From: Chloroflexota bacterium
Lineage (GTDB): Bacteria > Chloroflexota > Anaerolineae > UBA1429
NCBI GenBank assembly: GCA_012719135.1
Contig: JAAYAW010000085.1
Location: forward strand, 2,067-66,066
Reading direction: 5' to 3'
Length of the DNA stretch: 64,000 nucleotides
Below, piece by piece: positions 5,352 to 49,308 of this stretch; position 1 is the first letter of the stretch, and the number at the start of each line of letters is the position of its first letter. The position numbers and the translations under genes are program-made. The notes beneath the pieces are model-generated. The model made no database searches. It saw nothing but the letters and a program-made list of their open reading frames with translations, and was not told the origin of the DNA.

Positions 5352-5360
5352 GACCTGTTA

Positions 5361-7131: not shown

Positions 7132-7159
7132 CGCCGCACTTGAGGGGAGACGATGCTCC

Positions 7160-8925: not shown

Positions 8926-8928
8926 GGG

Positions 8929-8959
8929 TTGGCCGCCTGCGCGTCCCCATGCTATAATC
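8929..8959 (+). promoter_or_regulatory. putative promoter TTGGCC-18-TATAAT upstream of the membrane protein gene
   Basis: gctataatcg with tataat at 8954-8959 and ttggcc at 8929-8934. About 50 nt upstream of the 9012 start. Confidence 0.45.
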
Positions 8960-9011
8960 GCTTGTCGAGCAAGATCCGCGCCTCGGGTGCAGAGTCCAGC
9001 CGGGATAACAC

Positions 9012-12221: not shown

Positions 12222-12245
12222 GTTGAGCGAGAGCGGAGCACTCCC

Positions 12246-13541: not shown

Positions 13542-13560
13542 TCTATAGATACGGAGTGAT

Positions 13561-14938: not shown

Positions 14939-16942
14939 TCAACGCAGTTGCAGGATGAGGACGTCCTTCGGCGCCAGCGTCAGCGTGCCCGCCATCTCGC
15001 GGCCGGAGAGAAGGTCCTGGGCAGGCGAGGGCATGGTGAGCTGGCACTCGGTGTCGAGGTGGTTCAACACGAGCGTGTAGGTCCGTCCGCCGGCGCTGCG
15101 CTGCGCGATCTCCACGCCCTCGCACGCCTCCAGCGGCGCCCGGATGCCCTTTTCATCGCACAGTGTGAGGACGAGATCGGTGAGTAAAGACTGCTCCATG
15201 TCACTGGCGACGTACAGGGCCCGCCCCTCTCCAAAGGTGTGGTCTGTGATGGCCGGGTACCCGGCGTAGAACTCGCCCGCGAATTGGGCACGGGCCACGG
15301 CTCCCTCGAGATGAAGCAGGTCACACAGCACGTGTGCAGAATAGGTGCCGCTGATTCGTCCCCAGCGCTCTGTCGAGACGGGAACGCCCTGTCCCTCCAG
15401 GAGCGCATCGTGCTCCTCCACCCAGATCCCCAGCACTTGGCGCAGACCGCCTGGATAGCCTTCTCCTGTCGCCAGGTCGTTCTCATCGACGATGCCGCTA
15501 AAGTGCCCGACGACCAGTGTCCCACCCTGCCGGACGTATTCGGTCAAGCGCTCGGCGACGCCGGGGCGGAGCATGTACAGCATCGGCGCTATGACGATGT
15601 CGTAGCTTTCCAGCGCTGAATCCGGGCTGACGACGTCGGTGGCGATGTTCGCGCTCCACAGGGCTCTGTAGTACTTTTTGCAGCTCGCGACATAGTCCAG
15701 ATCGCAGCTTGGCCGCACCGAGTAGTCGATCCCCCACCAGTTCTCCCAGTCAAACAGGACGGCACAGCGAGCGTTCTGCCGCGTGTCCACCAGCGCTTCT
15801 CCCAGGGACTCGAGCTCTGCACCCAGGCTGGCTACCTCCTGAAATACGCGTGTGCGCTCGTGGCCCACATGGTCGACGATCGCCCCGTGCATCTTCTCCG
15901 GCCCTCCACGAGCCCGTCGGAACTGGAAGAACATGACGGTGTCCGCACCGTGGGCCACGGCCTGGTAGCTCCAAAGCCGCATCACGCCTGGGCGCTTGAG
16001 TTGGTTTCTGGGCATCCAGTTCACCTGGCTTGGCGTCTGTTCCATCAGCATAAAGGGCTGCCCGCCCCGCAGCCCGCGCATCAACTCATGCTTGAAGGCG
16101 ACGCTGCTGGGGTGTTCGTCCGGGAAGGGGTAGCTGTCCCATGAGACGACATCGAGATAGGGCGCCCAGCTGTGGTAGTTGAGTGGCCTAAAGTGTCCCA
16201 TGAGGTTCGTGGTGATCGCCACATCCGGGCAGACGGACCTGATCGCGTCATACTCGTTTCGATAGCAGGCGAGCAGCGAGTCGTTCTGAAAGCGGTCATA
16301 GTCCAGGAGCATCGGCATGTTGTTACGCTCGCCGTTGGTCGTCGGCGTCTCGATCTCGGCCCATTGGGTTAGCCCATGGCTCCAAAAGTTGTTGTTCCAA
16401 GCGGCGTTGACGGCATCCAGCGATCCATACCTCGCCTTGAGCCAGTCACGAAAGGCCTCGGCACAGAGCTCACAGTAGCAGTGCGTACCGTACTCGTTAG
16501 CGATGTGCCAGGCGACGAGGGCGGAATGATCCTTGTAGCGTGTGGCCAGGCGCAGTGTTAGCTCGCGCGATAGCCGCCTGTAAGTCGGGCTGTTCGGGCA
16601 AAAGTTGGTACGCCCTCCGTGCTTGTGCCGGATGCCCTGTACGTCGGTGCGCAGGATGTCCGGATACCGCAGTGACATCCAGGCCGGTTGGGCGGCGGTC
16701 GAGGTCGCGATACACGCATAGACGCCGGCCGATGCGAGTTTGTCCAGGATTCGATCCAGCCAGGCAAAGTCGTACCGGTCCTCGACGGGTTGCAGCAGGG
16801 TCCAGCTGAACACTGGCAGGGTGACCACATCCACATGCGCGAGCTTCATCAGCTGCACGTCTTCGTCCCAGACTTCCTCGGGCCATTGGTCGGGGTTGTA
16901 GTCGGCGCCGTACCAGATCTTGTCGAGTTTGTGGCTGATCAT
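14939..16942 (-). CDS. beta-galactosidase, glycoside hydrolase family 42
   Basis: GH42 hallmarks (YGADYNPDQWPEEVW..., catalytic NEYG, C-terminal trimerisation/beta-sandwich domains). Start moved to the conserved MISHKLDKIWYGADYNP, M9 of the track ORF. Confidence 0.9.
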   Translation of the reverse strand: MISHKLDKIWYGADYNPDQWPEEVWDEDVQLMKLAHVDVVTLPVFSWTLLQPVEDRYDFAWLDRILDKLASAGVYACIATSTAAQPAWMSLRYPDILRTDVQGIRHKHGGRTNFCPNSPTYRRLSRELTLRLATRYKDHSALVAWHIANEYGTHCYCELCAEAFRDWLKARYGSLDAVNAAWNNNFWSHGLTQWAEIETPTTNGERNNMPMLLDYDRFQNDSLLACYRNEYDAIRSVCPDVAITTNLMGHFRPLNYHSWAPYLDVVSWDSYPFPDEHPSSVAFKHELMRGLRGGQPFMLMEQTPSQVNWMPRNQLKRPGVMRLWSYQAVAHGADTVMFFQFRRARGGPEKMHGAIVDHVGHERTRVFQEVASLGAELESLGEALVDTRQNARCAVLFDWENWWGIDYSVRPSCDLDYVASCKKYYRALWSANIATDVVSPDSALESYDIVIAPMLYMLRPGVAERLTEYVRQGGTLVVGHFSGIVDENDLATGEGYPGGLRQVLGIWVEEHDALLEGQGVPVSTERWGRISGTYSAHVLCDLLHLEGAVARAQFAGEFYAGYPAITDHTFGEGRALYVASDMEQSLLTDLVLTLCDEKGIRAPLEACEGVEIAQRSAGGRTYTLVLNHLDTECQLTMPSPAQDLLSGREMAGTLTLAPKDVLILQLR

Positions 16943-37287: not shown

Positions 37288-38496
37288 ATGAATCGCGACA
37301 ACAGCAACGATCGAAAGGCCGCTCTCAAGCAGATGATCACCGATCTGCACGCTGGAGTGGATCTGCAGCAGGTTCGCGAGCGTTTCGTTGCCTTGGTGGG
37401 GAGCGCCAGCGCGGTGGAGATCGCGCAGATCGAGCAGGAGCTCATCTCAGAGGGGTTGCCAGTGGAAGAGGTGCGCGCCATGTGTGACGTGCACGTTTCG
37501 GTGTTTGAACAGGGCCTGCAGTCGCCAGAGCATCCCGAACTGGTGCCCGGGCATCCGGTGCACACGTTCAAGTACGAGAACTTTGCGCTTTCAGAGATGC
37601 TCGCCCTGATCGAGGAGACGATCGCCGAGCTACCCTCGGAACGCGCAATGAACGCTCTCGCCAGCTATCTGGCGCAGATGAAGCAGTTCGACCGGATCTA
37701 CCTCCGCAAGGAGCATCTGCTGTTCCCTTATCTGGAGAAGCATGGCGTGAGCGGGCCTACGTCGGTGATGTGGAGCATCCACGACGACGTCCGCAATCAG
37801 GCCAAGACCCTCGAGGCGGCCGTCGCCGCCCACGACCCGGGGGCGATCCGCGACGCGTTTGCGCCGCTGGCCGAGAACATGCGCGCGATGATCTACAAGG
37901 AGGAAAACATCCTCTATCCGACGGCTCTCAAGGTGCTTGACGATGCCGAGTGGCTCGCCATCCGGGATTCCAGCGATGAGATCGGCTATTGCCTGGTGCG
38001 ACCGGGCGATCAGTGGCAGCCCGACCTGCCTGAAGGAGAGCGCGAGCCCGCGCTAGAGACCGTGCCGGCGTATCTCGGTGGCGAGATGCCACTGGAGGTG
38101 GGCGCCCTCACGCTGGAGCAATTGACGCAGCTGTTTCGCCACCTGCCGGTGGACCTGACCTTTGTGGACGAGAAGGACACGGTCCGTATCTACTCGGAAT
38201 CGATCCTGGGAAGGGTCTTTACACGAACACCCTCGGTTATCGGGCGCAAGGTGCAGAACTGCCATCCGCCTGCCAGCGTCCATGTGGTCAATCGGATCCT
38301 GGAGGATTTCCGTGCAGGCACGCGTGAATCGGCCTCCTTCTGGATCACCCTGCACGATCGATTTCTCTACATTCGGTACTTTGCGGTGCATGATGCGGCC
38401 GGAGCCTACATGGGGACTCTGGAAGTGGTGCAGGATGTGACCGAGATTCGGGGCCTTGAGGGACAGCGGCGTTTGCTGGATGACGTCGTGTCCTGA
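37288..38496 (+). CDS. DUF438 domain protein with hemerythrin-like and PAS-like regions
   Basis: 402 aa; DUF438-type N-terminus, a central hemerythrin HHE-like region (HLLFPYLEKHG...WSIHDDVRNQ), and a C-terminal PAS-like fold. Possible gas/redox sensor. Confidence 0.65.
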   Translation: MNRDNSNDRKAALKQMITDLHAGVDLQQVRERFVALVGSASAVEIAQIEQELISEGLPVEEVRAMCDVHVSVFEQGLQSPEHPELVPGHPVHTFKYENFALSEMLALIEETIAELPSERAMNALASYLAQMKQFDRIYLRKEHLLFPYLEKHGVSGPTSVMWSIHDDVRNQAKTLEAAVAAHDPGAIRDAFAPLAENMRAMIYKEENILYPTALKVLDDAEWLAIRDSSDEIGYCLVRPGDQWQPDLPEGEREPALETVPAYLGGEMPLEVGALTLEQLTQLFRHLPVDLTFVDEKDTVRIYSESILGRVFTRTPSVIGRKVQNCHPPASVHVVNRILEDFRAGTRESASFWITLHDRFLYIRYFAVHDAAGAYMGTLEVVQDVTEIRGLEGQRRLLDDVVS

Positions 38497-38573: not shown

Positions 38574-40457
38574 TCAGTCTAGAGCAGCAAGCTGATCGTA
38601 CACCCAGGCGATATCCAGTTCCTGGAGCTTGCCTCTCGTCGGCTTGCCGGTCTCCCTGTCCCAGCCCATCATCTCGTAGAAGGTCTCCTTGGCCTCTTCC
38701 AGGACCTCCGGATCGACGGGCTCTTCGTTCAATGTGCTCGTGACGTGGTACTGCTGCATGCGGAGGGGCAGCCGGTCGTCATCGCGCGTCAGACCCTCGC
38801 GCATGTTAAACGCCCTGGCCATAGTCACCCCACGTTCGCCAGCGCGCATCAACTCCCACACATTGGTCTGCCACCCAGTGATGGCCGAGACGATGTCCGC
38901 CATCTGCTGACGTGTCCAGTTGATGAACATGCAGTTGCCCAGATGGTTGAACACCCACTGCCAGTTGCTGACGTACATGTACGCTCGAACTTTGTCCGGG
39001 CTCAGATCGGTGCGCGGAACCGACGTGTAGATGCCGAGTTCCTGGACGCCTTGTCCCAGCGGCTCGTTGGCGATGCTCTCGTCCCAAAAGTTGTGCATAT
39101 GGTCGGCGCCGGTGGGCGACAGCGCATATCCCAACGCCTGGCCATGCCGGGTTCGGCACTCGTGCATCGGGAAGGGCTGCCCCTTGACCGTGATCGAGAA
39201 CTCCATGGCGTTTCCGCCGATACTGGCAGCTGCGGCGTCGGTGCCCTCCGCCAGCAGCGCCCCCAGCCCCTCGCGGCGGCAGATCATCTCCACCAGCTTG
39301 AGCATGGATGCGGCGTTGCCAAAGGAGAGATCCAGGCCGCCGGTTGATTCCAGCGTCAGCAGGTTGTTCTCGTAGCACTCCATCGCGAACGAAACCGCCA
39401 TGCCGCACGAGATCGTGTCCAGGCCGTAGGCGTTGCACAGCTCGTGGGCCTTGCTGATCGCCTTCAGGTCGTCGATGCCGCAGTTGGAGCCAAACGCCCC
39501 GATGGTTTCGTACTCGGGCCCGCCGTACTGCGGATCGATGTCCATTCCGAGCTCGTGGACTTCCACGACGCGCTTGCAGCGCACCGGGCACGCATAGCAG
39601 CCTTCGCGGCCGGTCATGATCGTGTCACGCAGGGTGGTGCCGGTGATCTTTTCCGCTTGCTCGAACTGGCCATCCTGGAAGTTGCGCGTCGGGAGCGCAC
39701 CGATCTGGCTCAGGCCCACCAACCCTCCCGGCGTGCCCACATCGTGCTGTGCCCAGCTCATCTCTTTCCAGTGATCGGTCATGAACCGGGAGAGCTCGCG
39801 GAACTTGTCCTGATCCGCGACCGGCAGACGGCCCTTGCCTCTGGCCGCGATCGCCTTGAGCTTCTTGGATCCCATGACCGCACCGGTTCCGCTTCGGCCA
39901 GCCGAGTGCCGCAAGTCATTGATCACACATGCGTATTTTACGAGGTTCTCGCCCCCGGGGCCGATCATGGCTAGCCGGATGCGGGAATCACCACCCAACT
40001 CAGCCTGGATCGCCTCCTGGGTCTCGAGAGTGTTCTCGCCCCAGATATGGGAGGCGTCACGGATCTCTACGTTCCCGTCGTTGATCCAGAGGTAGACAGG
40101 CTTTGGCGATATGCCCTGGACCACGACAGCATCATACCCGGCCTGCTTTAGCTCTGCCCCGAAAAAGCCGCCCACGTCCGCGCTGCCGTACCCTCCGGTG
40201 AGGGGTGACTTGCAGCCCACGCTGCTGCGTCCCGCTCCTGTGATCGGCAGCCCTGTGAACGTCCCCGTAGCGAACACCAGCAGGTTGTCCGGTCCCAGCG
40301 CGTCTACTCCCGAAGCCATCTCGTGGAGCAGATAGTACGCGATGAAGCCATTCCCGCCGAGATAGCGCCGGTAAAAGCTATCCGGCATCTCGTCTACCCA
40401 CGTCCTGCCGTCGGATAGATCGACACGCAGGATGCGCCCAGTAAATCCAGCAACCAT
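38574..40457 (-). CDS. aldehyde:ferredoxin oxidoreductase (tungsten-containing AOR family)
   Basis: Full-length AOR similarity (N-terminal domain, CxxC...C Fe-S ligands CYACPVRCKR). Start moved to the ATG at 40457 (MVAGFTGRIL), preceded by TAAAGGAGAGAG; the track ORF starts at a TTG 6 codons upstream. Confidence 0.9.
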   Translation of the reverse strand: MVAGFTGRILRVDLSDGRTWVDEMPDSFYRRYLGGNGFIAYYLLHEMASGVDALGPDNLLVFATGTFTGLPITGAGRSSVGCKSPLTGGYGSADVGGFFGAELKQAGYDAVVVQGISPKPVYLWINDGNVEIRDASHIWGENTLETQEAIQAELGGDSRIRLAMIGPGGENLVKYACVINDLRHSAGRSGTGAVMGSKKLKAIAARGKGRLPVADQDKFRELSRFMTDHWKEMSWAQHDVGTPGGLVGLSQIGALPTRNFQDGQFEQAEKITGTTLRDTIMTGREGCYACPVRCKRVVEVHELGMDIDPQYGGPEYETIGAFGSNCGIDDLKAISKAHELCNAYGLDTISCGMAVSFAMECYENNLLTLESTGGLDLSFGNAASMLKLVEMICRREGLGALLAEGTDAAAASIGGNAMEFSITVKGQPFPMHECRTRHGQALGYALSPTGADHMHNFWDESIANEPLGQGVQELGIYTSVPRTDLSPDKVRAYMYVSNWQWVFNHLGNCMFINWTRQQMADIVSAITGWQTNVWELMRAGERGVTMARAFNMREGLTRDDDRLPLRMQQYHVTSTLNEEPVDPEVLEEAKETFYEMMGWDRETGKPTRGKLQELDIAWVYDQLAALD

Positions 40458-40715
40458 TGCTCTCTCCTTTACCAACCAGACTATGTGAACCCCCCGATTT
40501 CGGACGGGAATATGTTAGCGCAACTGCGCCGCGGGAACAAGCAAGGGCGCCGAGCCAAGCGATTGACACAGGCCCCGCGCGATGATATAGTCGCGGGGCT
40601 TTACGGGCGGTGGTGGTCGCACGGACACCCCTTCCCGCCTCGTTCCAACCCCAACGTAGAACAGAAGAACGCGCGTCTTCCGGCCTGGCACGGGCCGGAT
40701 GTTGAGGAGTGGACC

Positions 40716-42986
40716 ATGCCCAAGACTGAGAATGGCCGGCAACAGGTGGTGGTGTTCGCCGGCACGCAAGGGCTCGCGATGCTGCTCTCCGCCTATCGAG
40801 ACGCCCCGTGGGATATCACCGGTGTGGTGCCGCCCGCCAATGCGGGAGCCGCCTTTGCCCAATTGCACTCGAGCCTGGGGGCCACCGCCGAGGAAGTCCT
40901 GATACCCACGCTGGACCGCGTGGAAGTGTGTGCTGAGCTGAGCGACGCCTCGCATCTCATCGGAGAGGCGGCCATAACGGCAGGCCGCGAGGGAGCCTCC
41001 ATCCGGCGTGTCTTTCTCGTCTCGGATTCGCCTGGCCGCCCGCAGACGGACTTTCGTCCTACACCAGAGCTCCTGGCGGCCCTCCGAACTGCAGACGCAA
41101 TCGTGATCGGTCCGGGCTCGCTCTTTACCAACCTGATCCCCTCTCTTCTGATCAGAGAGATCAACGACACCGTGCGGCAGAGCATGGCGCGCAAGATCTT
41201 TATCTGTAACCTGATGACTCAGCCGAACCAGACCGACGGGTACTCGGTGGCCGATCACGTCCGCACCATCCAGCAGCACTGTGGCCTTCGCTTTGACTAT
41301 GTTCTGGCGCACTCGGGCGGCATGATCAGCCCCGAGGTGTTGCAGCGTTACCGCGATAGCGCGGCGGATCTGGTTGTCGCGCAGTTGGTCGTAAACGATG
41401 GCTCCCAGGTAGCCATCTTTCCCGACTCGCCGCAGGAGATCGTCCTGGTAGAGGGCGCGATCCTGATGCAGCGCGATCTCGCGATGGAGGTGCTGCAGGA
41501 GGATCCTCTGACCGGCGAGCGCCATCTGGTCGTGCGCCATGATCCCAGCAAGCTCGGAGAGGCGCTGCGCTCTGTGTTGCACGACTATGCTCTGGAGAAA
41601 AAGCTCTCGGTAAGCCGCGCCATCTTCCGGGAGTACGATATCCGCGGCATCGTGGGCGCCGAGTTGACCACATCGGCCCTGGAGGCGATGGGTCGCGCTT
41701 TTGGCACCTATATCCTCCGCCGGACCGGCCGAGGCCAGATCGTGATCGGGCACGATGCGCGCCCCAGCTCGCTCCCCTTTAGCCAGGCGGCCGTCAGGGG
41801 ATTGCTCGAGAGTGGGTGTGAGGTTCTCGATATCGGGCAGGTGCCAACCCCGCTGACTTCTTTTGCCGTCAACCACTTTTGGGTGGACGGAGCCATCCAG
41901 GTGACGGCGAGCCACAACCCGGCCGAGTTCAACGGGCTCAAGCTGCAAGTCGGGATGGAGCCCCTCGCCGGCGCGGAACTTCAAAAGGTCGAGCGGCTCA
42001 TCGCCAGCGGCGCTTTTGCCTCCGGGCGGGGTCAGCGACTGGCCCGTGACGTGATCTACCCCTACCTCAACTGTCTGCTGCACAAGGTTGCCGTCTCGCG
42101 CCCTTTCAAGGTGGCGGTAGATGCTGGCCATGGCGTGAATGGCCCTCTGGCTTTGCGGCTCCTGCGGGAGCTGGGATGCCAGGTGGTCCCGCTCTACTGC
42201 GAGCCGGACGGCACCTTCCCCGCTCACGCGCCGGATCCGTCCGAAGAGGAGAACCTGGCTGATCTCGCTCAAGCTGTGCTGGAACACGGCTGTGACCTGG
42301 GTGTCGCCTTTGACGGAGATGGCGACCGTATCGGGATCGTGGACGAGAGGGGGCAAATCCTTCCTCCCGACGTGTTCCTGCTGCTGTTTGCCCGTGAGGC
42401 CCTGCGTGACGGGCCCGGTAAGGCCGTCTTTGAAGTGCGTTGCTCGGAGATGCTGTTCGACGGCGTGCAAAAGTACGGCGGCATGCCGATTATGTCACGT
42501 TGTGGCAATACCTCCATTCTGCCTCGGATGCTCCAGGAGCGCGCTCTGATCGGCGGCGAGCTGAGCGGGCACATCTTTTTCAACGATCCACCGATCGAGT
42601 TCGATGATGCGCTCTTTGCGGCGGCCAAGCTCCTGGAGTACATCGACCGGGCGGGGATGCCACTCAGCCAGATGGTCGATCACCTGCTGGACGGCCTGCC
42701 CCGGTACGTCAGCTCCCCCGAAATACGCATTGATTGCCCGGACTATCTCAAGGAAGAGGTTGTGGATGCCGTGCGAGATAGCTACAGTTCCCGATTCCGG
42801 GTGATCGATATCGATGGCGCACGGGTCTACTACGACGAGAAGGACTGGGCCCTGATCAGGGCATCCAACACGTCGCCCAAGCTCTCGCTGCGCTTTGAGG
42901 CGCTCGACGAGGTCCGGCTCGCCACGATGAAAGAGTCCATGCGGGAGGAGTTGCTCCGCTACCTGCCGGAGGTCCGCTCTTTCTAG
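40716..42986 (+). CDS. fusion protein: YvcK/GlmR (CofD/UPF0052)-like domain + alpha-D-phosphohexomutase (PMM/PGM-type, COG1109)
   Basis: Residues 1 to about 300: ADAIVIGPGSLFTNLIPSLLIREINDTVRQSMARKIFICNLMTQPNQTDGYSVADHVRTIQQHCG closely matches the YvcK C-terminal half, but the N-terminal DDGGSSG-type motif is replaced by PPANAGAAF. Residues about 310-756: FREYDIRG, active-site TASHNP, GDGDR. One uninterrupted reading frame. Start at ATG 40716 after GAGGAG; the track ORF begins 77 codons upstream. Confidence 0.8.
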   Translation: MPKTENGRQQVVVFAGTQGLAMLLSAYRDAPWDITGVVPPANAGAAFAQLHSSLGATAEEVLIPTLDRVEVCAELSDASHLIGEAAITAGREGASIRRVFLVSDSPGRPQTDFRPTPELLAALRTADAIVIGPGSLFTNLIPSLLIREINDTVRQSMARKIFICNLMTQPNQTDGYSVADHVRTIQQHCGLRFDYVLAHSGGMISPEVLQRYRDSAADLVVAQLVVNDGSQVAIFPDSPQEIVLVEGAILMQRDLAMEVLQEDPLTGERHLVVRHDPSKLGEALRSVLHDYALEKKLSVSRAIFREYDIRGIVGAELTTSALEAMGRAFGTYILRRTGRGQIVIGHDARPSSLPFSQAAVRGLLESGCEVLDIGQVPTPLTSFAVNHFWVDGAIQVTASHNPAEFNGLKLQVGMEPLAGAELQKVERLIASGAFASGRGQRLARDVIYPYLNCLLHKVAVSRPFKVAVDAGHGVNGPLALRLLRELGCQVVPLYCEPDGTFPAHAPDPSEEENLADLAQAVLEHGCDLGVAFDGDGDRIGIVDERGQILPPDVFLLLFAREALRDGPGKAVFEVRCSEMLFDGVQKYGGMPIMSRCGNTSILPRMLQERALIGGELSGHIFFNDPPIEFDDALFAAAKLLEYIDRAGMPLSQMVDHLLDGLPRYVSSPEIRIDCPDYLKEEVVDAVRDSYSSRFRVIDIDGARVYYDEKDWALIRASNTSPKLSLRFEALDEVRLATMKESMREELLRYLPEVRSF

Positions 42987-43004
42987 TCTCCTGCCAAAAG
43001 TCAA

Positions 43005-43044
43005 GGGGGCATGCACAGCACGTGCATGCCCCCTTGCTCTACTT
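43005..43044. terminator. bidirectional intrinsic terminator (12-bp stem GGGGGCATGCAC/GTGCATGCCCCC)
   Basis: Perfect 12-bp stem, 5-nt loop, T-rich tracts on both sides (TTGCTCTACTT on plus; TTGACTTTTGGC on minus). Between the convergent fusion gene and glmS. Confidence 0.6.
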
Positions 43045-43056
43045 GGAAACCGGATC

Positions 43057-44901
43057 CTACTCCACGGTAACGCTCTTGGCCAGGTTGCGGGGCTGGTCCA
43101 CGTCGCAGCCGCGCAGGACGGCCATGTGATAGGCAAAGAGCTGCAGCGGGATGGATGCCAGAATGGCGGTCACATAGTCTCCCGCTCTGGGGATCCAGAT
43201 GACATCGTCGGCCTTTTCGGCCACTTCCATGTCACCATCGGACGCTATGGCGATCACCCGGCCACCCCGCGCCTTGACCTGTTCGACATTGCTCAGCATC
43301 TTGGAGCGCACGCGATCGTCCGGGCAGATGGCTACCACGGGCATGCTTTCGTCGATCAGGGCGATCGGGCCGTGCTTCATCTCGCCCGCCGGGTATCCTT
43401 CGGCGTGGATATACGAGATCTCTTTGAGCTTGAGCGCACCCTCAAGTGCGATGGGATAGTTCATCCCTCGCCCCAGGTACAAGAAGTCATCGCAGTTCAT
43501 GTACCGGCGAGCCATGCTCTCATAGTCGGCCGCGCGCCCGAGGAGTTCCCCCGCCAAGCTGGGCAGCCGGCTCGCTTCCGCCAGGAGGCTCGCACGGCGC
43601 TCACGGCTGAGCGTTCCGCGCTTGTTCCCCAGGTACACGGCGAGAAGCAGCCCGGCGGCGACCTGCGACGTGAAAGCCTTGGTTGAGGCTACCCCAATTT
43701 CTGGGCCCGCATTGATGGAGATCACGCCATCGGCTAGGCGGGCCGCTTGGCTTCCGGGGACGTTCACCAGCGCAATGGACTGCATCCCCCGTTCGCGGGC
43801 GGTCTCCATTGCGGCCAGCGTGTCCACCGTCTCCCCAGATTGTGTGATGACGAGCACCACCGATCCGGGTTCGAGCAGCGGGTCCCGGTACCGGAACTCG
43901 GAACCGTAATCCACCTCCACTGGGAGGCGCGCCAGGTCCTCGATCATGAACTTGGCCATCAGGCAGGCATGCCACGCCGTCCCGCAGGCCACCGCGTGCA
44001 GCCGGCGAAGGTGCGGGAGGATCGGTTCGACGCCGGCCAGATCATGCAGCACGACCTGGTCCTCGCTCAGATCCACTCGGCCTCGCAGCGCATCGGTCAG
44101 CGACTGAGGCTGATCGTAGATTTCCTTGAGCATAAAGTGACGGTACCCCTGCTTGGCCGCCATCACGGGGTCTCCGGTTAGTGTGGCCACCGGCCGCTCC
44201 AGAGGTGCGCCTGCTCGATCCATGATGCGCACGTCATCGCGGGTGACGGTCGCGACGTCGCCATCCTCCAGGAAGATGACGTGCCGCGTCTGCGGGAGCA
44301 GCGCAAGCGTGTCAGACGCGACGAAATTCTCTCCCTCTCCCAAACCGATCACCGTCGCCCCAGCGTGCCCCTTTCGGGCTGCTACCAGCAACTCCGGCTC
44401 CAGCTGGCTCATGACCACGATGGCGCTGGGACCCTCTAGTTCCGCTAGGGTCAGCCGGACGGCCTCGGCAAGCGGCTTTTGGCCGCCCCCGTAATGCCGG
44501 GATACGAGATGGGCGATTACCTCGGTGTCCGTCTGTGAGCGAAAGTCGACGCCCTCCGCTTCCAACGAAGACTTGAGCGCCCGGTAGTTCTCCACAATGC
44601 CGTTCTGGACGATGGCGATGTTGCCCTCTGCATCGATGTGAGGGTGGCAGTTGCTCTCCGTGACGGCGCCATGGGTCGCCCAGCGCGTATGTCCCAGCCC
44701 CAGCCCGCCGGATAGGTCGGCTTCTCCAACCCTGGCGGCAAGATCTCGGATGCGCCCGACGCTGCGGCATCGCTCGATGCCATGCTCACCGTATACGGCG
44801 ATGCCGGCAGAGTCGTATCCCCGGTATTCCAACCGCTCCAGACCCTCGAGTACGATGTCTGCGGCGCGACGTGTGCCCACATAACCAACAATACCGCACA
44901 T
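43057..44901 (-). CDS. glmS: glutamine--fructose-6-phosphate aminotransferase
   Basis: 614 aa; starts MCGIVGY (catalytic Cys2), two SIS domains, C-terminal ...VTVE. Confidence 0.97.
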   Translation of the reverse strand: MCGIVGYVGTRRAADIVLEGLERLEYRGYDSAGIAVYGEHGIERCRSVGRIRDLAARVGEADLSGGLGLGHTRWATHGAVTESNCHPHIDAEGNIAIVQNGIVENYRALKSSLEAEGVDFRSQTDTEVIAHLVSRHYGGGQKPLAEAVRLTLAELEGPSAIVVMSQLEPELLVAARKGHAGATVIGLGEGENFVASDTLALLPQTRHVIFLEDGDVATVTRDDVRIMDRAGAPLERPVATLTGDPVMAAKQGYRHFMLKEIYDQPQSLTDALRGRVDLSEDQVVLHDLAGVEPILPHLRRLHAVACGTAWHACLMAKFMIEDLARLPVEVDYGSEFRYRDPLLEPGSVVLVITQSGETVDTLAAMETARERGMQSIALVNVPGSQAARLADGVISINAGPEIGVASTKAFTSQVAAGLLLAVYLGNKRGTLSRERRASLLAEASRLPSLAGELLGRAADYESMARRYMNCDDFLYLGRGMNYPIALEGALKLKEISYIHAEGYPAGEMKHGPIALIDESMPVVAICPDDRVRSKMLSNVEQVKARGGRVIAIASDGDMEVAEKADDVIWIPRAGDYVTAILASIPLQLFAYHMAVLRGCDVDQPRNLAKSVTVE

Positions 44902-45014
44902 TGAACAACCTCCAATGGTGCGTGTAACAAGGACGGGCAGGCAGAGTACGCCAGCCTCGTGCAGTTCCGATCAGATGATGGGTGCCACCGGATCACCGAT
45001 TGGCTCGCCGGTCG

Positions 45015-45190
45015 CCCGGCGCCTTTGTGATGACCCTTGTTGTGGGAGGGTGTGTTCGGGGTGTGGCTCACCCCGGGGGCTTCCGCTGATCTCTCGATTT
45101 TCCCCGGCTCGTCGCCGGGTTAGGCCCGCTGCGGTGCGGGCAACCCCTTCCTCGTCAGCTGCCGTTCGGCAGCCCGTGCGCTAGAACCCT
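45015..45190 (-). ncRNA. glmS ribozyme: glmS ribozyme (GlcN6P-responsive self-cleaving riboswitch) in the glmS 5' leader
   Basis: Minus-strand leader: UAG|CGCACGGGCUGCCGAACGGCAGCUGACGAGGAAGGGG...AUCGAGAGAUCAGCGGAAGCCCCCGGGGUGAG...ACAAGGGUCAUCA. It aligns with the conserved glmS core (A|GCGCC..CGAAC..UGACGAGGA.GG ... CGGCGGAUGCCUCCCGGCUGAG ... CAAGGGGGUGA). Sits in the 325-nt gap between the DUF512 stop and the glmS ATG. Boundaries are approximate. Confidence 0.65.
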
Positions 45191-45226
45191 CCGCGCGCGT
45201 CGTTTCGCTAGGCTTGCCTCCCTTCT

Positions 45227-46552
45227 TCAGGCTCCCAGACTGTACAGCAGATCCACGATCTCGCCAAGGCTAGAGACCGCCTCCACCGGGACGCCCAGGC
45301 TCTCGGCAAGGGAACCGATGCTCATGTCATCGAGCGTGCGCTCTCCGGTCTCATCCAGCATCGCCTTCGGGAGGCACACCATGTCGCCGGCGGGTCTGGA
45401 GCGCAGTGCGGCGAGAACATCGGCGCCGGTGAGAAGGCCGGACACGGTTACGGTAGCGCCAAAGAAGCGGTTCTGCACGGGCAGCACCGTCAGCCGGGCG
45501 CCCGTGATCTCGCTCATCTCCCCTGCTAGCGATTGCAGAATCGGTGCGATGAGCTCGCCGCACACGAGCGTCACTCGGAGGCCCGCGAACAGGCCGGGCT
45601 TGATGTCGTTCTTTGTGTAGGCCCAATCATCCAGCAGGTCGCGCACAAGGCCGACGCCGTTCTCAGATTGGGCTCTGTCATCATAGTGCTCGGCGGGCGG
45701 TACATCCTGGCCGGCGAGCAGGTACATCTCATCGGAGGGGTATAGCCAAGTGCATCCTGTGCGCCCGTGGATCGTGCCGGCAAGCTCTCGCGCCAAATCC
45801 AGGACGGCGGCTGCCTCTGCCGGCTTCAGAGTCCTCTGGTCGTTACCGCGGTAGCGCGTGAGTCCCACCGGAACGATTGCGAGCGTTTGAACCGTGGGCC
45901 ACTGCTCCAGCAGTGCAAGAACGGTCTGTCGCAGGATCGGTCCGTCGTTCTGTTCCGGAAGGAGCACCACCTGGGTGTGGACGCGGATGTTCATGTGGCC
46001 AAGGCGTTCGATTTGTCTGACGATATCGCCGGCTCGCCCGTTGCCCAGCAGGGCTCGCCGCACGTGCAGATCCGTCGCGTGGACCGATACGTACAGCGGG
46101 CTCAGGTTCTGCTCGCCGATGCGCTGCCAGTCATCCTCCTGAAGGTTGGTCAGCGTCACAAAGCTGCCGTGCAAGAATGACAGTCTGTAATCATCATCGC
46201 GGACGTAGAGCGTCTTGCGCATGCCCCTGGGCATCTGCGCCACAAAGCAGAACGGGCAACGGTTTGAACACTGGCGCAGGCCGTCAAAGAGGGGCTCCGC
46301 AAAGACCAATCCGAGGGATTCGTCATACTCCCGCTCGACCTGGATACGATGCAGACGCCCGCCACGGAGTATCTGCAGCGTCAGCTCTTCTTCGGCGCCG
46401 TAGAACTGGTAGTCGATCATGTCGCGCAGCGGGTGTCCATTGATCGAGACCAGGAGATCGCCGGGCTCTGCGCCGATCTCGTCGCCGATGCTACCTGGTT
46501 CTACATGGGCGATGCGGCCACCGCGCGTCCTGCGAGCATTACGCCCCAGCAT
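45227..46552 (-). CDS. PDZ domain + DUF512 (radical-SAM-like Fe-S) protein
   Basis: 441 aa; N-terminal PDZ (GSIGDEIGAEPGDLLVSING) and a DUF512 core with the CSNRCPFCFV cysteine motif. Confidence 0.7.
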   Translation of the reverse strand: MLGRNARRTRGGRIAHVEPGSIGDEIGAEPGDLLVSINGHPLRDMIDYQFYGAEEELTLQILRGGRLHRIQVEREYDESLGLVFAEPLFDGLRQCSNRCPFCFVAQMPRGMRKTLYVRDDDYRLSFLHGSFVTLTNLQEDDWQRIGEQNLSPLYVSVHATDLHVRRALLGNGRAGDIVRQIERLGHMNIRVHTQVVLLPEQNDGPILRQTVLALLEQWPTVQTLAIVPVGLTRYRGNDQRTLKPAEAAAVLDLARELAGTIHGRTGCTWLYPSDEMYLLAGQDVPPAEHYDDRAQSENGVGLVRDLLDDWAYTKNDIKPGLFAGLRVTLVCGELIAPILQSLAGEMSEITGARLTVLPVQNRFFGATVTVSGLLTGADVLAALRSRPAGDMVCLPKAMLDETGERTLDDMSIGSLAESLGVPVEAVSSLGEIVDLLYSLGA

Positions 46553-47237
46553 CGTTCATCTCCTCGGTGCCGCGCACAAGGTCCAGGATGCGCGCCACGA
46601 CCTGATCAATATCCAGCCGCGTCGTGTCCAGATATTGGGCACCCTTGGCACGGCTCAGTGGAGCCACCTCTCGTGAGCTATCGATTCTGTCGCGGTTCGC
46701 CAGATCGGCGACGACCTCCGCAAAGGGGACGCGCGCGCCACGTTCTGCGGATTCCACAAAGCGCCGCCGGGCGCGCTCGTGCAGCGACGCATCGAGGTAC
46801 ACCTTGACCTGGGCCTCCGGCAGGACCACGGTGCCGATGTCCCGACCAACCATCACCACCCCGCCCTGCATGCCGATCCGGCGCTGTTGTTCCGTCAGCG
46901 CGCTGCGAACGCCTCTGTAAGCGGAAACCGGCGATACGCCGCGGTTGACCTCGGCACCTCTGATCCCCCAGGTGATATCGACGTCGTCGGCGAACACCGT
47001 GTACTGGCGCCCGTCTGATACGGTTGGGGGCTCCACCCGAATGGCGAGCGTTTCAGCCAGCGCCGTCACGGCTGGCTCGTCGGCGATGTCAATGCCTCGA
47101 TCGATGGCTGCCCACGTCACGGCACGGTACATCACCCCCGTGTCAAAGTACAGGTAGCCCAACGCGGCGGCGACGCGCTCTCCCACCGTGCTCTTGCCCG
47201 AGGCGGCTGGTCCATCAATCGCTATCGTTATGCGTGC
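46539..47237 (-). CDS. cmk: cytidylate kinase
   Basis: P-loop IAIDGPAASGKST, plus YFDTGVMYR and NRD motifs. Start proposed at the TTG at 47237 (LARITIAIDGP), 9 nt after GAAAGGAGAG; the track ORF starts at ATG 47267. Confidence 0.9.
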   Translation of the reverse strand, partial: ARITIAIDGPAASGKSTVGERVAAALGYLYFDTGVMYRAVTWAAIDRGIDIADEPAVTALAETLAIRVEPPTVSDGRQYTVFADDVDITWGIRGAEVNRGVSPVSAYRGVRSALTEQQRRIGMQGGVVMVGRDIGTVVLPEAQVKVYLDASLHERARRRFVESAERGARVPFAEVVADLANRDRIDSSREVAPLSRAKGAQYLDTTRLDIDQVVARILDLVRGTEEMNDAGA

Positions 47238-48027
47238 CAAGACCGTGGCTCTCCTTTCGATCGCCATCGCTCAAACCGGTGATCCTGCGCAGCGCCGATA
47301 CCTCAGATTCGCTTAGCGGGCGGTATTGCCCGGTCTGCAGTTCGCCAAGTTCCAGGCTCGCGATGCGAACCCGGATGAGCCGCTGAACGCTCAAGCCCAG
47401 GTGTGCCATAAGCTCGCGAATCTCGCGCTTGTGTCCTTCGCGCAGTACCAGGCCGATCCACTGGCACCCGCTTGGCACAGGCTCACCACGCCAGAGCCAG
47501 CCCGCTGGCAGGTCCCGGACGTGAGCGCGCGCCGGCAATGCCTTATCCTGGAGGCTTACCCCGCTCGCGAGTTGCCGGCGTGCCTCCTGAGTCAAGGTTC
47601 CCCGGATCGATACGCGATACTCCTTCTCATGGCCATAGCGTGGATGCGTCAGCCGTAAGGCGAGCGGGCCATCGTTGGTATATAGCATCAGGCCTTCGCT
47701 ATCTCGATCCAGCCGGCCGACGGGGTACACGCGCACGATCGCTGGCACGAGATCGCTCGCCAACAGAGTGGCGTGCGGATCGCGGTTCGAGGATACATAG
47801 CCCACGGGCTTGTACAATGCCCCGTAGACCGGGACTTTGGCCACTGGAAGGTCGGCTCCATCAACGGTGATCCGGTCTATCCCGGCTCTCACCCGCGTCC
47901 CCAGCTCTGTGATCACCAAGCCGTTGACCGAAACACGGCCAGAGAGGATCATGGCCTCACTCGCGCGCCTGGAAGCAACCCCCGCCTGGGCCATCACCTT
48001 CTGAAGGCGCTCCGCCTCATCGGGCAT
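47215..48027 (-). CDS. rluB: rRNA pseudouridine synthase (RluB/RsuA family)
   Basis: S4 domain (RLQKVMAQAGVASRR) plus catalytic GRLD motif (VYPVGRLDRDSEGL). Confidence 0.9.
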   Translation of the reverse strand: MPDEAERLQKVMAQAGVASRRASEAMILSGRVSVNGLVITELGTRVRAGIDRITVDGADLPVAKVPVYGALYKPVGYVSSNRDPHATLLASDLVPAIVRVYPVGRLDRDSEGLMLYTNDGPLALRLTHPRYGHEKEYRVSIRGTLTQEARRQLASGVSLQDKALPARAHVRDLPAGWLWRGEPVPSGCQWIGLVLREGHKREIRELMAHLGLSVQRLIRVRIASLELGELQTGQYRPLSESEVSALRRITGLSDGDRKESHGLGTHNDSD

Positions 48028-49123
48028 ACAGAGGCGCCTCCATCAGAGGGCGCCCTGCCAGGAGCACCTCGAGAGTACCGATGGGTTCATCTGCAGCCGG
48101 GTTCACCACGGGATTGTGAATCCGCCGCACGATGGTTACCGAGCCTGTCTGCCAGGAGCGCACAAGCATCGTCAACGGCTCACGAAGGCCAAAAGCATGC
48201 AGGTTGCCCTCAGTATCCACATATCGGTTCAGCGGCGATTCGGGCAGGTCAAAATGGAGTTCCGCATAGTGGCCGTAAAAGTGGTCCAGGAGGCTCACAG
48301 AGTCGGCATATCGGTCCGTCGATCCAAGCACCACCGCAAGCGCATCCCCCTGAGGCCGGCGGACCAGAGTGATGAGGCACTCGCCCGCGAGTTCCTCTGT
48401 TCCCGTCTTGATGCCTACCGTTCCCGAGTACCTGGTGAGCATCTCGTTGGTGTTGACGAGGCGCCGATCCGCGGCGATGATCTCTGGAGTGGCGAGTATC
48501 TCCCGGAGGAAGGGAACGCTCTCGGCGTACAGCGCGATCTGTGCCATGTCCCACGCGGACGTATAGTTCTCTTCATCATCGAGGCCGTGAGGATTGGCAA
48601 AGTGCGTGTTCCTCAGGCCGTGTGACTCTACCCACTGGTTCATCCATCCCACAAAGACGTCGGCGGTGCCGCCGAGGGTGCGCGCGATGGTCACGCCCGC
48701 TGTGTTATCGGAAGGGATCAGCAGGACATGGAGCATCTCGTCCAGCGTCAGCGTTTCCTGCTCGTGGAGACCGATCATGGTCCAGATCTGGAGGTCTTCC
48801 TCGGTGACCGTCACCGTCTGATCGAGGTCGCCTCGCTCCAGAGCAACGATGGCCGTGACGAGCTTGGTCAGGCTCGCCGGCGCCCGCCGGGCGTGCTCAT
48901 TCTGCGCCAGGATGACCTGGCCGGTGGTGGGGTTCACGAGGAGCGCCGCTGGTGCCGTCACGGCCGGCAAGGGCTCATCGCGCATGAGCGCGATCTGCTG
49001 TGGTGTCAGCGACTTGAGCGGCTCGTCCGCATCGGTCAGCCGCGGCGGGCCAAAACCAAAGCAGGGCACCACCAGGACGATGAGAAGGAGGATTGCGAGA
49101 CGACGTGTCACTGTATGCTCCAC
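48017..49123 (-). CDS. D-alanyl-D-alanine carboxypeptidase (serine peptidase S11, PBP5/DacB-like)
   Basis: Signal peptide; SxxK (PASLTK), SxN (PSDN) and KTG (GIKTGT) motifs. GTG start. Confidence 0.85.
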   Translation of the reverse strand: MEHTVTRRLAILLLIVLVVPCFGFGPPRLTDADEPLKSLTPQQIALMRDEPLPAVTAPAALLVNPTTGQVILAQNEHARRAPASLTKLVTAIVALERGDLDQTVTVTEEDLQIWTMIGLHEQETLTLDEMLHVLLIPSDNTAGVTIARTLGGTADVFVGWMNQWVESHGLRNTHFANPHGLDDEENYTSAWDMAQIALYAESVPFLREILATPEIIAADRRLVNTNEMLTRYSGTVGIKTGTEELAGECLITLVRRPQGDALAVVLGSTDRYADSVSLLDHFYGHYAELHFDLPESPLNRYVDTEGNLHAFGLREPLTMLVRSWQTGSVTIVRRIHNPVVNPAADEPIGTLEVLLAGRPLMEAPLYAR

Positions 49124-49241: not shown

Positions 49242-49270
49242 TTGACAACCATACCCCCCTATGGTATATT
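49242..49270 (+). promoter_or_regulatory. putative promoter TTGACA-17-TATATT upstream of the CoADR-fusion gene
   Basis: ccTTGACAaccatacccccctatggTATATTcgc. It overlaps the 5' end of the track ORF (49261), arguing for the downstream ATG 49309, which is preceded by GGGGAGG. Confidence 0.55.
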
Positions 49271-49308
49271 CGCACAGATTCTCGCATAGCTTGCGTTGGG
49301 GAGGCTTC

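Follow-up and report, generated by a model that had tools for sequence, protein, structure and literature searches.

What is the role of a protein that joins a YvcK/GlmR-like module to a phosphohexomutase and is encoded tail to tail with glmS? The question arises from the window, a 64,000-nucleotide stretch of DNA from an uncultured Chloroflexota bacterium, in which a CofD/YvcK module and a complete PMM/PGM-type mutase form one protein. The module is a shortened relative of GlmR/YvcK, a regulator of cell-wall precursors.

Architecture and conservation of the fusion

The fusion gene consists of the following elements:

40563..40591, forward strand: promoter-like site TTGACA-17-TATAGT, with TG, by consensus match only (11 of 12 positions), giving the fusion gene a leader of about 125 nt
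40716..42986, forward strand: fusion coding sequence (short YvcK-like module, short linker and PMM/PGM-type phosphohexomutase), 756 aa
40716..41585, forward strand: short YvcK (sYvcK) module, residues 1-290, with the CofD/YvcK fold, without YvcK residues ~51-122 and without the catalytic Asp-Asp
41586..41618, forward strand: linker helix YALEKKLSVSR, residues 291-301, conserved in sequence and of low model confidence
41619..42983, forward strand: phosphohexomutase, residues 302-756

As the preliminary description had held, a single open reading frame, open from 40485 to 42986, carries both a YvcK-type domain and a complete mutase. The start is placed at the ATG at 40716 because the database protein P0001, which is 100% identical to the window fusion, and the other short-form homologues are also about 756 aa in length; a GAGGAG sequence lies 7 nt 5' of this codon. 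The promoter-like site is the only one found in a scan of 40300..45400, and the fusion-gene leader in the window matches no Rfam family, the glmS ribozyme included. The Pfam CofD family (PF01933) matches residues 52-221 (E 3e-40; 138.6 bits, cut-off 30), over profile positions 108-271 of 290 only, and PGM_PMM_I to IV match residues 302-744 (E 8e-34, 7e-31, 1e-17, and 6e-08), all above their cut-offs. In the AF2 model (pTM 0.63), pLDDT falls below 50 at residues 291-316, the linker, and the interdomain interface, which the preliminary description had proposed to model, did not appear with confidence.

The fusion is real, is under constraint, and is kept in more than 100 related sequence clusters. 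The CofD plus PGM architecture is present in 118 of the 120 best 90%-identity clusters, all from Chloroflexota/Anaerolineae metagenome-assembled genomes, which answers the proposed check of its conservation in related genomes, and it recurs in independent clusters from JGI, ENA, NCBI, and Logan assemblies. The linker sequence is conserved among the fusions, and dN/dS is 0.08-0.11 for the N-terminal module and 0.05-0.10 for the mutase. The deeper-branching (long-form) fusions, like the unfused relatives described below, carry a two-helix transmembrane (2-TM) anchor, which the clade of the window has lost. A literature search found no paper describing a YvcK–mutase fusion, in agreement with its having been called apparently undescribed.

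An assembly or frameshift artefact, or a decaying pseudogene, was also considered, and has almost no probability. Its sole support is the sub-threshold scores against several protein families given below; it is refuted by the 118-cluster conservation, by the alignment with its conserved linker, and by dN/dS values near 0.1, and the catalytic loops of the mutase are intact.

A YvcK module without its predicted catalytic residues

The N-terminal module has the CofD/YvcK fold, and all of the motifs quoted in the preliminary description (GPGSLFT, ICNLMTQ..TDGY, and PPANAGAAF in this module; FREYDIRG, TASHNP, and GDGDR in the mutase) are present. Its C-terminal half is strongly conserved with GlmR/YvcK (UPF0052, TIGR01826) of B. 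subtilis and L. monocytogenes and with mycobacterial CuvA, sharing GPGSL[FY]T and CN.MTQ..T[DE]GY. Profile searches of the two halves, which had been proposed as a check, thus succeeded with Pfam and fell short with TIGR01826, against which sYvcK scores 130.5 bits (cut-off 196) over profile positions 115-269 of 310 only. Relative to canonical YvcK, the module lacks a block of about 66-70 residues, a feature missed in the preliminary description, and a clade-specific insertion of about 45 aa follows R211-Y212. The deletion could remodel the shape of the pocket.

The canonical DDGGSSG-type loop is replaced in the window fusion by the following motif:

40830..40856, forward strand: motif P39-PANAGAA-F47, in place of the canonical [TV]-V-A-D-D-G-G-S-S loop (D to N42, D to A43)

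All of the 75 fusions compared share P40, G44, and F47, and across them the replacement motif PPxxxGxxF does not vary. The predicted catalytic residues of the GlmR uridyltransferase are D38/D39 in B. subtilis and D40/D41/N198 in L. monocytogenes (PMC10128056, PMC13046274). D37/D38 of B. halodurans YvcK align with N42/A43 of the window fusion, and other fusions have G/S at both positions; the equivalent of L. monocytogenes N198 is S143 in the window and S/A/T elsewhere. With all three predicted uridyltransferase residues lost, sYvcK is probably non-catalytic. The module keeps N165, Y212, and R274-H275-D276, of which N165, Y212, and R274 align with N218, Y265, and R301 of B. subtilis GlmR and are invariant or nearly so in the 75 fusions. 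The substitutions Y265A and R301A abolish UDP-GlcNAc binding by B. subtilis GlmR, and YvcK binds UDP-Glc as well as UDP-GlcNAc (PMC5482804). The equivalent of T14, a minor UDP-sugar residue, is shifted in sYvcK (T17/Q18). Because the binding residues are kept and the predicted catalytic residues are lost, sYvcK looks like a non-catalytic ligand binder, and binding of UDP-GlcNAc or UDP-Glc may be inferred from the three aligned residues. The loop had been described as degenerate, with the suggestion that the module is no longer a ligand binder; the replacement is confirmed, and the conclusion drawn from it is not, since the loop is the predicted catalytic site and the UDP-GlcNAc residues are retained.

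The fusion might instead be a two-step enzyme, in which sYvcK would carry out nucleotidyl or phospho transfer on the hexose-1-phosphate made by the mutase, using the PPANAGAAF loop in place of the Asp-Asp site. Enzymes with this fold include CofD, FbiA, and GlmR, the replacement motif shows strict conservation, and a canonical YvcK fused to an NTP_transferase domain at another locus (L168) indicates that YvcK–enzyme fusions occur in nucleotide-sugar pathways. We nevertheless consider this quite improbable, as the three predicted uridyltransferase residues are replaced by N, A, and S/A/T, the deleted ~66-70 residues lie beside the active-site loop, and one locus (L177) encodes a complete GlmU-type enzyme beside sYvcK, which makes a second transferase unnecessary.

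The sYvcK clade, as defined in this analysis, is marked by the deletion of about 66 aa, the absence of Asp-Asp, an insertion after R-Y containing ..[LV]VEGA.., and a C-terminal RHDP.KL. These marks are common to the fusions and to four unfused proteins of 405-425 aa (P0124, P0297, P0299, and P0162, with the insertion as ..LVEGA..) that are annotated only as "CofD/UPF0052 family", and the canonical Chloroflexota TM-YvcK proteins P0317, P0378, and P0399 lack them. The unfused proteins differ from the window module in being encoded by separate genes, in keeping the 2-TM anchor, and in being only 31-39% identical to it; they share a homologous TM domain with the long-form fusions. The window module differs from GlmR/YvcK in its covalent attachment to a mutase and in an ancestral anchor of two TM helices. 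It also stands without yvcJ/rapZ–whiA neighbours: a yvcJ/rapZ (and whiA) synteny rule has been given for GlmR/YvcK (PMC7525490), and the annotated genes near the fusion, in the window and at about 20 fusion loci, include no RapZ/YvcJ- or WhiA-type gene.

The mutase, glmS and the gene neighbourhood

By sequence, including GELSGH and RASNTSP, the mutase half is an AlgC-type PMM/PGM and not a GlmM-type enzyme. It is 39% identical to P. aeruginosa PMM/PGM (AlgC) over the full length (E 1e-104) and shares with this member of the alpha-D-phosphohexomutase superfamily the four domains and four aligned loop signatures: T397-ASHNP in the catalytic Ser loop, D533-GDGDR in the Mg loop, G613-GELSGH in the sugar loop, and R715-ASNTSP in the phosphate loop. 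It differs from AlgC and related PMM/PGM in the 300-aa N-terminal sYvcK module and in the sugar loop, which has GELSGH in place of GEMSGH. The scores remain below the cut-offs for PgmG (NF046027, 386 bits against 600), PRK09542 (287 against 618), bacterial GlmM (TIGR01455, 168.7 against 447.55), and archaeal-type GlmM (TIGR03990, 354.4 against 439), and identity to solved GlmM structures is only 23-27%. GlmM (TIGR01455, TIGR03990) belongs to the same superfamily, and gene context suggests the same pathway step. As the mutase scores below every NCBIfam equivalog cut-off, GlcN-6-P may not be its substrate.

The surroundings of the fusion gene in the window include the following features:

43005..43033, between the convergent stops: perfect 12-bp inverted repeat GGGGGCATGCAC-agcac-GTGCATGCCCCC, read from the sequence
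43057..44901, reverse strand: glmS (glutamine--fructose-6-phosphate transaminase), 614 aa; TIGR01135 779.7 bits (cut-off 418), Pfam GATase_6/7 and two SIS domains
44990..45193, reverse strand: glmS ribozyme of a divergent subtype in the glmS leader, with the cleavage-site motif UAGCGC; Rfam RF00234, a covariance model of our own, and covariation
45227..49123, reverse strand: DUF512 radical-SAM gene, cmk, pseudouridine synthase, and D-Ala-D-Ala carboxypeptidase (Pfam), a syntenic block 5' of glmS
11379..12221, forward strand: cdaA (DAC domain)
12246..13541, forward strand: cdaR (YbbR)
13561..14889, forward strand: der

The fusion gene and glmS face each other directly, as the preliminary description had noted, with 70 nt between their stop codons, and this convergent orientation means that the two are not co-transcribed. 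The palindrome between them is probably a shared bidirectional terminator; a simple terminator scan did not call it, as a strict T run is absent. The 45227..49123 block is context outside the module; in relatives the same block follows the fusion with or without an intervening glmS. Domain matches at 11379..14889 agree with the earlier reading that cdaA-cdaR is followed by der, and no mutase or glmM gene was found 3' of cdaR in the window; the cdaA-cdaR pair recalls the cdaA-cdaR-glmM arrangement of Firmicutes, but the fusion does not adjoin it.

The glmS ribozyme that the preliminary description had placed in the glmS leader is real but divergent. A whole-window Rfam search at the gathering score gave no matches; in E-value mode, RF00234 matches 45023..45193 on the reverse strand over the full model with 24.1 bits (gathering score 37; E 0.0017). 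Despite this sub-gathering score, leaders at the same position in three relatives (L092, L097, and L110) reach 48.5-52.7 Rfam bits, and covariation supports the assignment: an eight-sequence alignment contains 49 pairs, 24 of them with compensatory changes, and 91.8% of cells are paired, as against 35-49% when slid, with none of 500 shuffles as high, the structure being taken from the same alignment. R1, a covariance model built in this analysis with the window sequence among its training sequences, scores 45044..45192 at 136.7 bits. The element shares with RF00234 the full P1-P4, the core sequences AGCGC, GACGAGG, and AAAAUCG..GAUCAGCGGA.GCC, and a position in the 5' leader of glmS on the same strand; its low score results from large insertions and a GC-rich periphery. 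GlcN6P-dependent self-cleavage would be expected of this leader. In one sublineage of fusions only, a glmS ribozyme occupies the leader of the fusion gene itself (L097, L171, and L172; 58-62 Rfam bits), and this copy has G, not A, at position -1.

The preliminary description had asked whether the fusion always neighbours glmS, and it does not. About 10 of the 16 informative short-form loci have a glmS gene no more than 4.5 kb away, convergent each time; it is absent near the fusion in six informative short-form loci and in all long-form loci, and is common only in the clade closest to the window, and the adjacency largely reflects shared ancestry. Independent gene context links the fusion to UDP-GlcNAc synthesis and hexosamine metabolism, through the ribozyme-led sublineage and through unfused sYvcK genes that directly follow glmS at two loci (L177 and L178). 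The L177 operon runs glmS, sYvcK, GlmM-like mutase, GlmU-like enzyme (Arch_GlmM-like, 368 bits; alt_bact_glmU, 419 bits, cut-off 225). A recurrent genomic link to glmS is shared with GlmR/YvcK, and canonical yvcK adjoins glmS at four loci (L160, L162, L165, and L145). The earlier reading as a hexosamine-flux control module is partly supported.

The fusion could also be a generic PMM/PGM that supplies Glc-1-P or Man-1-P for UDP-Glc, GDP-Man, and envelope glycans, with an N-terminal module that senses UDP-Glc or merely localises the enzyme; the proximity of glmS would then be inherited synteny with no functional meaning. The best matches of the mutase, P. aeruginosa PMM/PGM and PgmG, favour this reading, as do the binding of UDP-Glc by YvcK (PMC5482804), the variable neighbours of the fusion (GH42, PAP2, HAD, and class A PBP), and the long forms, which adjoin one or two further PMM/PGM paralogues and never glmS. 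It is unlikely, in our estimate, given the unfused sYvcK within the L177 operon, the GlcN6P-specific ribozyme ahead of the fusion in one lineage, and the loci examined, none of which showed a bacterial-type GlmM, so that one of the PMM/PGM-type paralogues may serve as GlmM.

Proposed function and its meaning

The explanation we prefer, to which we give an even chance, is that the fusion is a mutase of amino-sugar-nucleotide synthesis with a built-in, non-catalytic module for UDP-sugar sensing or for coupling to GlmS. The sYvcK module would descend from the membrane-anchored YvcK/GlmR of Chloroflexota, having lost about 66-70 residues, the three predicted catalytic residues, and, in the clade of the window, the 2-TM anchor. 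The AlgC-type mutase, predicted to be catalytically competent, would interconvert hexos(amin)e 6-phosphate and 1-phosphate in the synthesis of UDP-GlcNAc precursors, and sYvcK would sense the nucleotide-sugar end product and tune the mutase, link it to GlmS in the manner of free GlmR in Bacillus, or both, while the neighbouring glmS would be controlled separately by its GlcN6P ribozyme. The architecture, its conservation, the residue pattern, the fold, and the gene contexts are observed; ligand binding, the regulatory role, and the substrate are inferred. Counting against this explanation, it is counter-intuitive that GlcN6P should repress an enzyme that consumes it, and the ribozyme ahead of the fusion is confined to one sublineage and absent in the window.

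An overlapping account places the emphasis on activation of GlmS and not on allostery of the mutase. The fusion would be a scaffold, or metabolon, in which sYvcK binds and stimulates GlmS and tethers the mutase, so that GlcN-6-P is handed on directly, and in which the complex comes apart when a UDP-sugar binds. In B. subtilis, GlmR stimulates GlmS and is switched between partners by UDP-GlcNAc (PMC7525490), the positions of sYvcK after glmS in L177 and L178 and of the fusion beside glmS in the clade of the window fit such a complex, and a GlcN6P-repressed leader makes regulatory sense for an activator of GlmS. However, the GlmR–GlmS interaction was not found in Listeria (PMC10128056), the surface of GlmR that binds GlmS might lie within the ~66-70 residues deleted here, and the long-form fusions are never near glmS; we rate this account as somewhat unlikely.

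Beyond the fusion itself, we tentatively propose, while leaning modestly against it, that sYvcK is a natural GlmR pseudoenzyme, which would have lost its uridyltransferase chemistry and, under strong selection, been retained within the UDP-GlcNAc pathway to sense UDP-GlcNAc or to couple to GlmS. In glmS-sYvcK-glmM-glmU operons it would be a separate, membrane-anchored protein, in Anaerolineae it would be fused to the mutase, and in one lineage the fusion would also have been drawn into a GlcN6P ribozyme regulon. If this is true, that lineage would provide an example in which a glmS ribozyme governs a gene that is not glmS, and the regulatory role of the GlmR fold would be separable from its catalytic one and enough by itself for retention.

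The fused gene and its two halves

The preliminary description had proposed that one gene joins a YvcK-like domain to a PMM/PGM-type phosphohexomutase, and the fusion has proved genuine, as shown by a reading frame without a stop codon from 40485 to 42986, an architecture kept in 118 of the top 120 clusters formed at 90% identity, and strong purifying selection on both halves. The ATG at 40716 (MPKTENG...), which has GAGGAG 7 nt to its 5' side, fits the length of about 756 residues of P0001, a database protein of 100% identity, and of other homologues of the short form, which lacks a membrane anchor. Both halves are recognized by Pfam, as had been expected of them: CofD (PF01933) covers residues 52–221 (E 3e-40), PGM_PMM_I–IV cover residues 302–744, and it is these two domains that occur together in the clusters, all of which derive from Chloroflexota/Anaerolineae MAGs wherever the source names an origin. 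Short-form fusions (~756 aa) are at least 68% identical to the window protein over their full length, and long-form fusions (~855–877 aa) are 52–66% identical. The surplus of about 100 residues in the long form consists of two hydrophobic helices and not of the block deleted from YvcK, and its identification as the missing YvcK segment was rejected. The dN/dS ratios of 0.08–0.11 for the N module and 0.05–0.10 for the mutase are approximate, with synonymous sites near saturation. When genome contigs were scanned with a profile of the full-length fusion alignment, mostly generic PGMs were recovered through FDGDGDR, and the related locus L001 was the sole fusion.

The N module is a short YvcK (sYvcK) module. 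Against the YvcK crystal structures 2hzb and 2o2z, fusion residues 9–55 align weakly with YvcK 4–50 and residues 63–221 align strongly with YvcK 123–273; the two blocks skip the middle, and YvcK residues ~51–122 are therefore absent from the fusion. In the alignment with YvcK, the canonical GGGTGL is replaced by AGTQGL, VADDGGSSG by PPANAGAAF (the aspartates becoming N42 and A43), and Listeria N198 ("LPNLL") by S143. The replacement loop PPxxxGxxF is itself constrained, as P40, G44, and F47 do not vary across 75 sequences. Catalysis by the Listeria GlmR uridyltransferase is predicted to depend on D40, D41, and N198, and the triple mutant is ~100-fold less active (PMC10128056); B. subtilis GlmR D38A D39A does not complement (PMC13046274). 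The UDP-GlcNAc site of GlmR has been mapped to T14, N218, Y265, and R301, of which Y265 and R301 are critical (PMC5482804), and the fusion residues aligned to N218, Y265, and R301 of canonical YvcK (N165, Y212, and R274 within R274-H275-D276) are invariant. The preliminary description had taken the degenerate DDGGSSG-type loop as a sign that ligand binding was lost; the degeneracy itself stands, and since the catalytic D/D/N are replaced and the binding-residue equivalents kept, the inference is reversed: what has been lost in the N module appears to be catalysis, not ligand binding.

The signature loops of the mutase half are all intact (T397ASHNP, D533GDGDR, G613GELSGH, and R715ASNTSP). This half is far nearer to P. 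aeruginosa PMM/PGM (E 1e-104 by sequence comparison; 39% identity and TM 0.94 by Foldseek) than to solved GlmM structures, with which it shares 23–27% identity. The NCBIfam models PgmG (386 bits, cut-off 600), Arch_GlmM (354 bits, cut-off 439), and bacterial glmM (169 bits, cut-off 447) all score below their cut-offs, and the scores therefore fix no substrate specificity. A model of the N module alone, built from eight sequences, reached a pLDDT of 52 and was set aside for an AlphaFold2 model of the full-length fusion, in which the interdomain interface that had been looked for is not confidently predicted (linker pLDDT below 50, pTM 0.63).

We hold with about even confidence that the fusion is a mutase of amino-sugar-nucleotide synthesis bearing a non-catalytic sYvcK module predicted to bind a UDP-sugar. 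The module would regulate the mutase allosterically or couple it to GlmS; the coupling variant, which overlaps with the broader reading, is tentative and taken by itself somewhat unlikely.

glmS, its ribozyme and the fusion neighbourhoods

The following features of the window are relevant to the genomic setting of the fusion.

Features around the fusion gene and at the cda locus
11379..12221, cdaA
12246..13541, cdaR
13561..14889, der
40563..40591 (+), promoter-like site TTGACA-17-TATAGT with TG, a near-consensus match
43005..43033, perfect 12-bp inverted repeat with a 5-nt loop
43057..44901 (-), glmS (TIGR01135, 780 bits), convergent with the fusion

The convergent arrangement is as previously described, with the stop codons of the fusion and glmS 70 nt apart; the inverted repeat lies in this gap and is probably a shared bidirectional terminator. 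In L100, a related locus, the corresponding gap (12301..12364) gives spurious palindromic "mir-587" matches on both strands. It was likewise borne out that cdaA–cdaR is followed by der, with no mutase after cdaR.

A search of the whole window with Rfam at the gathering score returned nothing. In E-value mode, the glmS ribozyme model RF00234 is matched over its full length at 45023..45193 (-), reaching 24.1 bits (E 0.0017) where the gathering score is 37, and the equivalent leader position scores 49.5 bits in L092, 52.7 in L097, and 48.5 in L110, with 27–31 bits in the L081, L093, and L100 leaders. Eight aligned glmS leaders share the invariant core AGCGC, GACGAGG, AAAAUCG..GAUCAGCGGA.GCC, and RNAalifold folds them into 10 helices with 49 pairs, of which 24 show compensatory changes. 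Paired cells amount to 91.8%, compared with 35–49% when the partners are slid, and none of 500 shuffles was as high, the structure being derived from the same alignment. The ribozyme claimed earlier for the glmS leader is thus upheld by the full-model match, the stronger matches in relatives, and the covariation, which together identify the window leader as a predicted glmS ribozyme, real but divergent. The L171 glmS leader (16103..16504, -) contains two matches (16162..16317 and 16323..16503) to R1, our own covariance model of these leaders, in whose building the window sequence was included; Rfam places a 5' segment at 16395..16504 with a 3' segment at 16103..16260, and the double match could reflect a tandem arrangement, a partial duplication, or a large insertion within a single ribozyme. 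In L108 (5033..8762), glmS adjoins the fusion across a 26-nt gap, and neither Rfam (E up to 0.1) nor R1 detected a ribozyme 5' of this glmS.

The possibility that the fusion always neighbours glmS did not survive the comparison of loci. Among short forms, a convergent glmS is directly adjacent (26–192 nt) at six distinct loci (window/L091, L092, L093/94, L100, L108, and L110), lies 2.5–4.4 kb away with genes inserted between at four (L081/82, L087, L097, and L171), and is missing from six informative loci (L083/84, L113, L088, L095, L174/175, and L176), in two of which (L083/84 and L113) the fusion directly faces the DUF512 operon; glmS was never found near long-form fusions in the loci examined. 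Short forms share the block AFOR–fusion–(glmS)–DUF512–cmk–rluB–dac, and much of the glmS adjacency is therefore shared ancestry. The main rival explanation builds on such inheritance, taking the protein for a generic PMM/PGM and its proximity to glmS in the window's clade for inherited synteny; we consider this unlikely.

Other neighbours were also recorded. In the window, a DUF438, hemerythrin, and PAS_10 protein (37288..38496, +) lies just upstream of the fusion; an aldehyde:ferredoxin oxidoreductase (38574..40475, -) is divergent from it, and the two are syntenic in several relatives; and an 846-aa ORF (49261..51801, +) resembles a fusion for sulfur trafficking, joining pyridine-nucleotide-disulphide oxidoreductase, rhodanese, TusA, and DsrE-like domains. 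Long forms are accompanied by a PMM/PGM paralogue 41–46% identical to the window mutase domain, which adjoins the fusion on its downstream side in the ~65% identity group and on its upstream side in the ~52% group; in the latter a third paralogue, of AlgC-like type, often lies ~4 kb away. At L001, L126, L127, L131, L132, L134, L135, and L137, all of the ~52% group, three PMM/PGM-type paralogues lie within 10 kb: the upstream one, the fused one, and an opposite-strand AlgC-like one (TGSHNP/GEMSGH), with pairwise identities of 41–47%.

Unfused relatives and independent links to hexosamine metabolism

A HMMER search with residues 1–300 against 1.84 billion representatives returned one fusion-type representative (P0121) and a set of unfused proteins of 390–430 aa that cover the whole module in a single stretch. 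Alignments of N-module relatives resolve three tiers.

Tiers of N-module relatives
Tier 1, canonical Chloroflexota YvcK, ~450 aa: P0378 (Tepidiforma), P0317 (Anaerolineae), P0399 (Dehalococcoidia); DDGGS and full middle segment
Tier 2, unfused membrane-anchored sYvcK: P0124, P0297, P0299, P0162; shared by all four are the deletion, the missing DD, and, after R-Y, an insertion containing ..LVEGA..
Tier 3, fusions

The tier-1 proteins have an N-terminal two-transmembrane domain homologous to the anchor of the sYvcK relatives. The most parsimonious order of events would lead from membrane-anchored YvcK to membrane-anchored sYvcK, then to the long-form mutase fusion, and finally, by anchor loss, to the short form of the window. 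A conserved N-terminal domain of two hydrophobic helices (..KRWL..YYLTLQFIPR..RGLLF..) was observed in P0378, P0317, P0399, P0355, and P0302, and GlmR appears to be membrane-anchored in Chloroflexota. A 603-aa ORF in L168 (9680..11491, +) combines a full canonical CofD/YvcK domain (DDGGS) with a sugar-1-phosphate NTP_transferase (PF00483) and is, as judged from its domains, a second, independent YvcK fusion to a nucleotide-sugar enzyme.

On both contigs examined (L177 and L178), the unfused sYvcK gene immediately follows glmS on the same strand, and 5005..10969 (+) of L177 is predicted to be a complete UDP-GlcNAc operon.

Genes of the L177 operon
5005-6870 (+), glmS
6890-8140 (+), membrane-anchored sYvcK
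8181-9683 (+), Arch_GlmM-like mutase (TIGR03990, 368 bits)
9680-10969 (+), alt_bact_glmU (TIGR03991, 419 bits, cut-off 225)

The order in L178 is glmS, sYvcK, and a GNAT-type gene; searches of both glmS operons revealed no glmS ribozyme. A full GlmU is present beside unfused sYvcK, and none of the three catalytic residues is left in the module; both observations speak against a new catalytic role for sYvcK, which we consider very unlikely. Two proposed generalizations were rejected: the paralogue beside long-form fusions is not an orthologue of the L177 GlmM-like gene (identities all 31–36%), and unfused YvcK-like genes do not generally lie beside PGM genes (no PGM in L140–L170, mostly canonical YvcK loci). 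Four of ~30 distant canonical yvcK loci (L160, L162, L165, and L145) have glmS within 2 kb.

In the sublineage of proteins 95% identical to the fusion P0021, a glmS-type ribozyme scoring 58–62 bits in Rfam occurs in the 5' leader of the fusion gene itself.

Ribozymes in fusion-gene leaders
L097, 9538..9753 (+), 58.1 Rfam bits (gathering score 37)
L171 (GCA_012515695.1), 7042..7257 (+), 62.2 Rfam bits (gathering score 37)
L172, 9576..9741 (+)

The ribozyme lies ~210–260 nt before the start codon, is more strongly conserved than other parts of the leader, and has G at position -1 instead of the usual A; glmS further downstream retains its own ribozyme. No ribozyme was found 5' of the fusion gene in 80%-identical relatives or in the window. 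The reading of the fusion as an amino-sugar-nucleotide mutase leaves unexplained the AlgC-type mutase in a hexosamine context and the repression by GlcN6P of an enzyme that would consume GlcN6P.

Significance for GlmR biology and Anaerolineae

Source databases label the fusion proteins variously as "hypothetical", "YvcK family", "CofD family", or "PMM/PGM", and full-text literature searches turned up no description of a YvcK–mutase fusion, in keeping with its having been called apparently undescribed. The mechanism of GlmR/YvcK is contested, the protein being viewed either as a UDP-GlcNAc-controlled activator of GlmS or as an accessory uridyltransferase with an essential Asp-Asp (PMC7525490, PMC10128056, and PMC13046274), and recent GlmR papers note that little is known of GlmR-like proteins outside Gram-positive bacteria. 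With its catalytic residues gone and the predicted ligand-binding ones kept, the sYvcK clade offers a natural separation-of-function case for this debate, and it is tied to UDP-GlcNAc genes by operon position, by gene fusion, and, in one lineage, by a GlcN6P ribozyme. To our knowledge, the glmS ribozyme is the only ribozyme with a metabolite cofactor, and its placement before a gene other than glmS would widen its known regulon. For Anaerolineae, a group plentiful in digesters and sediments and difficult to grow in culture, the findings suggest how the flux of cell-wall precursors is organised by means of PMM/PGM-type mutases.
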